Source: Escherichia phage vB_EcoS_G29-2 | Sequence record: NC_049822.1 | Strand: one strand, 5' to 3' | Length of the DNA stretch: 51,739 nt | Shown: positions 29,693 to 30,062 of the stretch, in pieces | Position numbering within the stretch: the stretch's first letter is position 1 | Layout of the letters: every line of letters starts with the position of its first letter | Made by a program: the position numbers and the translations under genes | The notes under the pieces: model-generated | Told to the model about the DNA's origin: nothing | Seen by the model: the letters and a program-made list of their open reading frames with translations, nothing else | Databases searched by the model: none

Positions 29693-29769
29693 TGTTCTTT
29701 TTGTTTTCCTGCGTTCTCAAATCTGCGGAGGCGTAAATTTAGCGCAAAAAGTGAGCAACAATAGAGCGT

Positions 29770-29935
29770 AATAAATACAGATAAATATATATACATATAT
29801 ATAAATCAATAAGTTAGCAGTATATATATTTATATTTGTTTTTTCTTGTTATCTATGTTTTGTGTGATTTTGTGTGTCTGGTAATTTTTATGTGGTTGTG
29901 TATGTGTCAGTGCTTGTGTGTGTCTATATATCTAT
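29770..29935. repeat. AT/TG-rich non-coding element, copy B
   Basis: same shared blocks as copy A; lies in divergent intergenic region. Confidence 0.55.
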
Positions 29936-30062
29936 ATCCGGCGCAAATGGAGGAACAAGAGAACAAAAAGACAACAAAGATATTTATCAATCACTTACAT
30001 GTAAATTTTGTTATCCGATTCGTCTGGAAACGTTGTTAGAACAGAAAAAACAAAATAACTGT

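Follow-up and report, generated by a model that had tools for sequence, protein, structure and literature searches.

The window analysed here, the 51,739 nucleotides of Escherichia phage vB_EcoS_G29-2 (sequence record NC_049822.1), contains two copies of a collinear intergenic module of approximately 400-435 bp, module A near the start of the record and module B upstream of recE. We tentatively interpret this pair as replication origins of the iteron type with a DNA unwinding element (DUE), coupled to early promoters, an assignment that is drawn from the architecture of the sequence and that we rate at slightly less than an even chance. In both modules sets of short repeats flank the most meltable DNA of the genome with helical phasing, putative sites for integration host factor (IHF) are present, and the phage encodes a helicase with a predicted DNA-binding tail as well as a primase, which together corresponds to the layout of an iteron-type origin. 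A sequence-only reading had already pointed to a shorter AT- and TG-rich duplication at these places and had offered a replication origin, an early promoter hub or a packaging-related site as its function. Among these options, the architecture would favour the replication origin.

The window represents the entire genome of a T1-like siphovirus of the genus Hanrivervirus (subfamily Tempevirinae, family Drexlerviridae); T1 itself is one of the original T phages. The gene order matches that of T1, with small early genes, terminase, head and tail genes, cor and recE-erf-ssb, followed by leftward and rightward replication and lysis blocks. The surroundings of copy B are 99.6-99.8% identical to the phages egaa and herni, and those of copy A are 94% identical to phage grams.

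Homology and conservation of the two modules

The colinear blocks on which the duplication had been proposed are present in both copies: AAATCAATAAGTTAG at 160-174 and 29802-29816, TATTTATATTTGTT at 186-199 and 29828-29841, and TGGTTGT at 265-271 and 29893-29899. A repeat search aligned 161-265 with 29803-29907 without gaps (105 nt, 73% identity), and when the complete intergenic regions A and B were aligned locally with gaps, the score was 94. Dinucleotide shuffles reached a mean of 23 and a maximum of 35, and shuffles that keep the composition within 15-nt blocks a mean of 32 (sd 6.8) and a maximum of 62 (500 shuffles each). Since the score of the two regions lies far above the composition-preserving shuffles, they are homologous and do not merely share an AT/TG composition; the sequence-only reading had named mere low-complexity AT similarity as what would refute it, and the alignment speaks for colinear homology instead. 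Moreover, the homology exceeds the extent given before, reaching from about 49 to 483 in A and from about 29690 to 30089 in B, and it includes box arrays and a promoter.

The genomic contexts are also as had been described. Copy B lies between the divergent genes for Cor (29389-29616, minus strand) and RecE (30119-31180, plus strand). Copy A lies, on the circularised genome, in a divergent intergenic region; its left neighbour is the leftward gene that ends at 51523 and its right neighbour the rightward gene at 520, the first in that direction. This region is internal in the record of phage grams and forms one uninterrupted intergenic stretch in relatives with other record starts.

According to nearest-neighbour energies, calculated in 100-nt and 200-nt windows, no other part of the genome is as unstable as regions A and B at either window size, which bears out the suggestion of easily melted DNA. 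The proposed strand-asymmetric TG richness is equally real: the G+T content of the plus strand is 0.82 in B and 0.79 in A, the two highest 100-nt values of the genome (mean 0.50, sd 0.065). However, the TG-rich stretch, although present in both copies, is the least conserved part of the module in sequence and length and is lineage-specific, the TG/CA bias being missing from the modules of T1, Rtp and KP36. The conserved parts are the boxes, the GC clamps and the promoter, and the box arrays had been overlooked.

The comparison with T1-like genomes was based on the complete sequences of T1, TLS, Rtp and the Klebsiella phage KP36 and on 45 recE loci taken from viral contigs, so that four lineages of Drexlerviridae were sampled, namely three subfamilies and the genus Webervirus. 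The layout was derived from an alignment of 11 B copies from different Tempevirinae and two A copies. Blastn of the module cores against phages found relatives at the level of Hanrivervirus only, and the copies in more distant phages were located by synteny. The same two-copy arrangement exists in T1, TLS, Rtp and KP36, and in all five genomes, including the present one, regions A and B occupy the top two ranks in duplex instability among the 100-nt and the 200-nt windows. In each of the 45 loci the 100-nt window of lowest stability was located upstream of recE, and in 44 of them it starts 322-395 nt before the recE ATG, the remaining locus (L046) having it at -167.

The A and B copies within each of these phages resemble each other, too. 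The alignment scores are 66 for T1, 63 for TLS, 141 for Rtp and 162 for KP36, against maxima of 60, 48, 45 and 47, respectively, in composition-preserving shuffles. Since the two paralogues of a genome resemble each other more closely than either resembles the corresponding copies of other genera, they appear to undergo concerted evolution. In KP36 (Webervirus; locus L054, 29509-35008), the recE-erf-ssb operon is inverted with respect to T1 and Hanrivervirus and is located directly downstream of the primase terminator, and cor is absent. Phage egaa possesses a B copy that is identical over the 171-nt core (29770-29940 of the window). Its A copy (NC_049852, approximately 480-830, corresponding to approximately 940-1290 of our locus L055) is a divergent, replaced allele compared to 40-480 of the window. 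The DUF7174 gene of egaa is divergent along with this module, and homology to the window is found again only to the left of about position 64. This divergence stopping at the module border indicates a mosaic exchange with a breakpoint there. In the egaa A allele, TGTTAT occurs as four clean boxes in tandem, and a GC clamp and two inverted ATAACA boxes lie by the AT core. Module B had no blastn match in any complete E. coli genome or PLSDB plasmid, so that nothing points to satellites or plasmids with a copy of the module.

Module architecture and candidate binding proteins

Both modules follow the same order of elements. They begin with three TGTT-type boxes on the plus strand, which in A are TGTTAT (52-57), GTTCCC (62-67) and TGTTATCTC (70-78) and in B (29693-29718) TGTTCT at 29693, TGTTTT at 29702 and CGTTCTC at 29712; the A set (52-78) aligns with the box sets of B and of TLS. 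Next comes a GC-rich clamp of the CCGGCGTAAAT kind. In B the clamp is CTGCGGAGGCGTAAATTTAGCGC, which shares 29720-29761 with the inverted box AGCAACAAT, and the CCGGCGTAAAT block is conserved in Tempevirinae. The position-equivalent part of A is an inverted repeat, TGTTATCTCAA/TTGAGATAACA, with the GC-rich centre GCCTCCGC (70-106), in which GAGATAAC occurs at 71 on the minus and at 98 on the plus strand. Boxes in the opposite orientation follow, in A as the A-rich sequence GTTCAC plus AACAAAAAGAACAAAATAA (115-140, plus strand), which represents the conserved GAACAAAAAGAACAAA block.

These boxes lead into AT core 1. In A (141-194) it is DUE-like, the window 101-200 being the second least stable 100-nt window of the genome, and it carries a perfect IHF consensus, AATCAATAAGTTA, at 162-174. 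In B (29770-29836) it is the least stable DNA of the genome and likewise includes a perfect IHF consensus (29804-29816). It also contains 3.6 copies of ATAAATATAT phased at 10 bp, which would fit the bent DNA that had been suggested, and it is for this AT core of B that the phasing was seen. On the other side of the core stand three tandem TGTT boxes at a spacing of 9-10 nt, all on the plus strand: TGTTAT at 195, TGTTAT at 205 and CGTTCT at 214 in A (195-219; spacing 10 and 9 nt; with invariant TGT/GTT columns), and TGTTTT at 29837, TGTTAT at 29847 and TGTTTT at 29856 in B (29837-29861).

The TG-rich spacer, C- and A-poor on the plus strand in A and the least conserved segment there, covers 220-307 in A and 29862-29914 in B, where it differs by a 2-nt indel from a close relative (L007). 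It is followed by a second AT tract (308-321 in A, 29915-29937 in B) and a second GC clamp (322-340 in A; CCGGCGCAAATGG at 29938-29950 in B). Tandem 9-mers come next on the plus strand. In A they are GTCAACCAG GTCAACAAG GTCAC (341-363; period 9, 2.4 copies and 92% according to Tandem Repeats Finder), and in B there are three of them, GGAACAAGA GAACAAAAA GACAACAAA (29952-29978), with GAACAAnA as the unit corresponding to GTCAACAAG. The second IHF or IHF-like site is AACCAATAACTTA in A, with one mismatch (376-388), and in B the consensus match TATCAATCACTTA (29985-29997); a box lies behind each of them, TGTTATCTC at 401-409 in A (376-409 together, plus strand) and TGTTATC at 30009-30015 in B (29985-30015, plus strand), where AAAATCAnnnACTTA and ATTTTGTTATC are conserved. 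An A-rich stretch, in B with the inverted boxes AGAACAGAAAAAACAAAATAAC from 30038 onward (within 30038-30089, plus strand), then leads to the promoter.

Each module ends with a predicted, near-consensus sigma-70 promoter on the plus strand, which agrees with the proposed early promoter hub in so far as such a promoter can be recognised from its hexamers. Both fit the pattern of TTGACA and TATAAT hexamers 16-18 nt apart upstream of a gene. In A, TTGACA-17-AATAAT (455-483) agrees at 11 of 12 positions and is predicted to serve the DUF7174 gene at 520. In B, TTGACT-16-TAAAAT (30062-30089, 10 of 12) is predicted for recE, and its hexamers are conserved across genera.

The boxes are strongly concentrated in the modules. 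Of 80 TGTT[AC]T sequences in the genome, 12 are found in the modules, which make up 1.65% of it (1.3 expected, p = 9e-9). Other phages have boxes of their own. In T1, TGTAACA occurs six times and always in A or B, as does CCGCGGA in Rtp (6 of 6); for GTAAGAT in KP36 it is 13 of 19 copies, including the palindrome GTAAGATGAATCTTAC, and for GTGAACA in TLS 4 of 8. The p values of this enrichment reach 1e-17. In the present phage, T1, TLS, KP36 and egaa, the repeat sets flank the AT-rich region on both sides. For the modules of the window a tandem periodicity of 9-10 bp was detected. Since phages of the same host possess different boxes, the protein binding to them is most likely encoded by the phages themselves.

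Matches to the IHF consensus WATCAANNNNTTR are more frequent than expected (10 in the genome, 4.2 expected), and four of the ten fall into the two intergenic regions, which account for 2.4% of the genome (p = 6e-5). The perfect matches at 162-174, 29804-29816 and 29985-29997 are each preceded by an AT tract and can be regarded as putative IHF sites. The downstream site is semi-conserved in Tempevirinae.

Among the phage proteins, a DUF3987 helicase (45840-47486, minus strand) is one candidate for the trans-acting factor, since its C-terminal approximately 80 amino acids (encoded by 45843-46169) are predicted to form a winged helix. Its open reading frame (548 amino acids, TTG start) exceeds all homologues (522-531 amino acids) by about 21 codons, and the true start is probably an internal ATG. 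A Zn-ribbon DNA primase of 331 amino acids (37049-38044, minus strand) matches the N-terminal half of 667-amino-acid primase profiles. The adjoining gene (38038-38511, minus strand) encodes a Cro-like helix-turn-helix (HTH) protein, an alternative candidate for the box binder. A comparison of helicase, primase and HTH protein with PDB sequences yielded Cro-like matches for the HTH protein only and none to the alpha protein of phage P4, and an NCBIfam search of the candidate proteins was uninformative. The model of DUF7174, encoded by the conserved first gene right of module A, has weak winged-helix-like matches.

Origin, promoter, packaging site or transcript

If the modules are origins, a phage-encoded, sequence-specific protein would bind the TGTT(A/C)T boxes, which stand in tandem at 9-10 bp and in opposite orientations on either side of the AT core. 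One candidate is the DUF3987 helicase, which would use its C-terminal winged helix; the other is the Cro-like HTH protein, encoded beside the primase. IHF would bind the consensus in the AT core as well as the second, downstream site and bend the DNA. The AT core, as the least stable duplex of the genome, would melt, presumably aided by negative supercoiling behind the strong rightward and the divergent leftward promoters. Helicase and the separately encoded primase would load there and replication would start. We infer the identity of the box binder as well as melting and replication start at the modules.

A number of observations weigh against this reading. Enrichment of strict IHF matches is confined to this genus, T1 and Rtp having one match each and TLS and KP36 none. 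DnaA boxes (TTATNCACA, up to one mismatch) are missing from both modules, and their genome-wide total is below chance expectation. The fold search with the helicase C-terminus returned generic winged-helix matches and no specific match to the P4 origin-binding domain, and a comparison of recognition helices from five phages did not discriminate between the two candidate binders, as they vary in both the winged helix of the helicase and the Cro-like HTH. The genes next to the modules encode DUF7174, Cor and RecE, so that the proposed origins do not lie beside the helicase or primase genes, unlike those of phage-inducible chromosomal islands (PICIs) and Staphylococcus aureus pathogenicity islands (SaPIs). 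GC skew tracks transcription and gene orientation and gives no origin signal. Finally, the modules keep a conserved distance to the promoters, and in KP36 module B moved together with the recE operon and stayed upstream of recE, two findings that a role in promoter control explains equally well. An R-loop-primed origin was also considered; it is unsupported, the promoter-like site at 116-143 having no counterpart in copy B.

A role in promoter control is the alternative that has to be taken most seriously, though we regard it as rather doubtful when taken as the whole explanation. Boxes, IHF sites and curved or unstable AT-rich DNA would then constitute an upstream activator and/or operator for the strongest pair of sigma-70 early promoters. 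Bending by IHF and destabilisation through supercoiling would enhance open complex formation, and a regulator such as the Cro-like HTH protein, which the phage does encode, would toggle early transcription, without any role in replication. The near-consensus promoter at the end of each module is in agreement with this, and so are the near-constant distance between AT core and recE start in 44 of 45 loci, the common movement of module B and operon in KP36, and the position of the semi-conserved second IHF site approximately 100 nt upstream of the predicted start. However, most boxes are located 40-400 bp upstream of the -35 hexamer and bracket the AT core rather than the promoter, which would be unusual for operators. 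A constrained architecture of approximately 400 bp with two AT tracts also exceeds the needs of known UP-element or IHF enhancers, and the promoter of the regulator itself lacks boxes in KP36 and has a single TGTAAC in T1. The origin and the promoter-control readings are not mutually exclusive.

The remaining explanations, a packaging site, a transcribed element and chance, are unlikely. The boxes could be sites for the small terminase and the module (part of) pac, with an arrangement resembling that of P1 pac, in which the cut region is flanked by hexamer repeats and an IHF site. The records of T1, TLS, Rtp and KP36 all begin in intergenic region A, and in that of T1 a terminal repeat of 2.8 kb is annotated, beginning at position 1. 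The pac site has been said to lie in the untranslated region of region A (PMC7718038). The area of the genome end is marked by a GATT/TGATT-rich stretch (51650-51739 plus 1-50), which is unique to region A and homologous to the record starts of T1 and TLS, where the terminal repeat or pac area is found. This stretch, with an IHF consensus at 51707-51719, is a candidate for the recognition region of the small terminase. Since it has no counterpart in copy B, the duplicated part is unlikely to be pac itself, and the packaging-related site of the sequence-only reading loses its support there. Copy B is located mid-genome, approximately 29.6 kb from the genome end, and a second full pac at this place would give rise to a second packaging series, which is unreported. 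The physical end or record start of T1 lies approximately 200 bp left of the AT core, within the stretch found in region A only, and the boxes contain no GATC. Taken together, a packaging function of the module is improbable.

Even less credit can be given to a transcribed element. On the plus strand it could be a small RNA rich in G and U or a short hydrophobic peptide, on the minus strand a C-rich, G-poor, rut-like tract for Rho loading that insulates the leftward genes. Open reading frames of 63-67 amino acids do overlap the spacer, where hypothetical proteins are annotated in relatives, the promoter-like site at 116-143 is directed into copy A, and the minus-strand RNA is unstructured and G-poor. 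On the other hand, an Rfam scan of the whole window gave no hit at the gathering score, and the folding of both strands of both spacers is no better than that of shuffles (z = -1.4, -0.4, -1.3 and +0.5). The bias in TG/CA does not extend to T1, Rtp and KP36, and the promoter-like site is specific to copy A. A coding function of the spacer was rejected, since it is the least conserved segment, varies in length and carries the 2-nt indel between close relatives. That two functionless low-complexity spacers resemble each other by chance can practically be dismissed. Both regions are strongly biased in composition, but the score above composition-preserving shuffles refutes this explanation, the pair and its layout recur in the four Drexlerviridae lineages sampled, and the box enrichment described above is far beyond chance (p down to 1e-17).

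Neighbouring features and relation to known systems

The modules must be distinguished from the 21-nt direct repeat of the T1 family, which has been described for TLS and T1 (PMC11447400). This repeat (aaATAGCACnnnTTGnTAAAA) is also intergenic in T1-like phages and borders each module on its left, upstream of cor (29673-29690, minus strand) and before the leftward gene that ends at 51523 (51587-51604, minus strand). Unlike the module, it has a different sequence, occurs in approximately 15-19 copies, is oriented with transcription and stays outside the duplicated element. An identity of module and repeat is thus ruled out, as the motif is present at the left borders only. In the window, the repeat (AAATAGCACnnnTTGnTAAAA) starts at 1255, 1719, 2766, 5422, 6767, 41043 and 42063 on the plus strand and at 51604, 50728, 50222, 49570, 48172, 45327, 29690 and 19023 on the minus strand, always upstream of genes and in the direction of their transcription. 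A -10-like hexamer follows approximately 21-22 nt after its TTGnTA. Since this gap is too long for a normal -35 hexamer, the repeat may be an activator or UP-type site.

Some further observations concern the vicinity of the modules or resemble them superficially. The second gene right of module A (998-1258, plus strand) encodes a small lipoprotein. Its signal peptide KALIGVLIAIATLTGC shares 81% identity with that of Cor across 16 amino acids, and the corresponding DNA forms a 48-nt inverted repeat. A stretch upstream of the holin gene (43708-43807) ranks third in the genome for duplex instability. Its AT-rich tract TAATCATTAAAATATAAATATAAATCATAAATTTA precedes a terminator-like hairpin; module boxes are absent, and an IHF consensus is found at 43870-43882. 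The overlapping CACCACCA/CAGCAGCA-type repeats at 34408-34550, inside a leftward gene (33872-34624, minus strand), are unrelated to the modules and probably encode a glycine-rich repeat. In several public records open reading frames are annotated across the modules, as 'hypothetical protein' or with 'one transmembrane domain', for instance 110-415 (gp01) in KP36 (NC_029099) and 2989-3426 (grams_9) in grams (MN850567), and likewise in ESh4, SFP17 and EC147, across their AT/TG-rich modules. These calls are probably spurious and caused by the skewed composition.

Iterons combined with an unwinding element are a known kind of element. The origins of PICIs and SaPIs, in which a Rep helicase binds two iteron sets around the melting region and Pri is the primase, are alike in several respects, as they also consist of lineage-specific sets of 6-7 bp repeats flanking an easily melted AT-rich region and are served by a primase and by a helicase with a C-terminal specificity domain, here a predicted winged helix. 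However, the PICI origin lies immediately 3' of rep, whereas in the present phage the helicase gene is approximately 4 kb away from A and the primase gene 8-13 kb from either module. Moreover, there are two putative origins here, each fused to a promoter and equipped with a second AT tract and a spacer of approximately 55-90 bp.

Phage P4 also has two separated cis sites, ori and crr, with the same short repeats, their distance being approximately 4.5 kb compared to approximately 29.6 kb here. The P4 type I repeat, TGTTCACC, is close to the TLS box GTGAACA (= TGTTCAC) and to the TGTTC and TGTTAT boxes. The P4 alpha protein unites primase and helicase in one chain with a winged helix at the C-terminus that binds the origin (PMC2777425). 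A similar protein logic of DnaG-type primase, helicase and (here predicted) C-terminal winged helix can be recognised in T1-like phages, but primase and helicase are encoded by separate genes and the helicase belongs to DUF3987 and not to superfamily 3.

The Bacillus phage SPP1 is a pac-type siphovirus with two origin copies, oriL and oriR, in which initiator boxes lie by an AT-rich region. Its proteins (G38P) are unrelated and its oriL is intragenic, whereas both copies described here are intergenic and linked to promoters. The iteron origins of pSC101 and R6K gamma share an AT-rich region and an IHF site next to at least three helix-phased tandem repeats, as well as inverted repeats near a promoter. 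They differ from the modules, which contain no DnaA boxes, have no adjacent rep gene and possess boxes far shorter than the 17-22-bp iterons. The IHF-dependent activating regions of ilvPG, lambda pL and Mu Pe also place an IHF site within unstable, AT-rich DNA ahead of a strong promoter. However, these regions comprise approximately 100 bp without phage-specific box arrays, and in the modules the AT core is located approximately 260-290 bp from the -35 hexamer.

Recent genome papers on T1-like phages looked for oriC-like or lambda-like repeats and reported none, nor any replication origin (PMC11447400, PMC7718038). With the two modules of approximately 400 bp, which display the hallmarks of iteron origins, the boxes, the likely melting site and candidate binders can now be named. 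A twin, promoter-fused and apparently concertedly evolving version of such an element in T1-like phages was not found in the literature searched. The modules probably also account for the recurrent spurious 'hypothetical protein' calls in databases, and they are sites to avoid or to exploit when these phages are engineered. If they serve promoter control instead, they would be the immediate-early regulatory hubs of a phage family that is widely used in therapy collections and in screens for defence systems.

A more specific proposal goes further and is correspondingly less assured, although we consider it possible: Drexlerviridae might replicate from two PICI-like iteron/DUE origins, oriA by pac and oriB upstream of recE. 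The DUF3987 helicase would recognise both through its winged-helix tail, gene conversion through the phage-encoded RecE/Erf would keep them alike, and divergent immediate-early transcription would supply the negative supercoiling for firing. If true, this would be the first assignment of origins for the T1 family, and it would tie the replication of virulent siphoviruses to a type of replicon that has so far been described as unique to PICIs.

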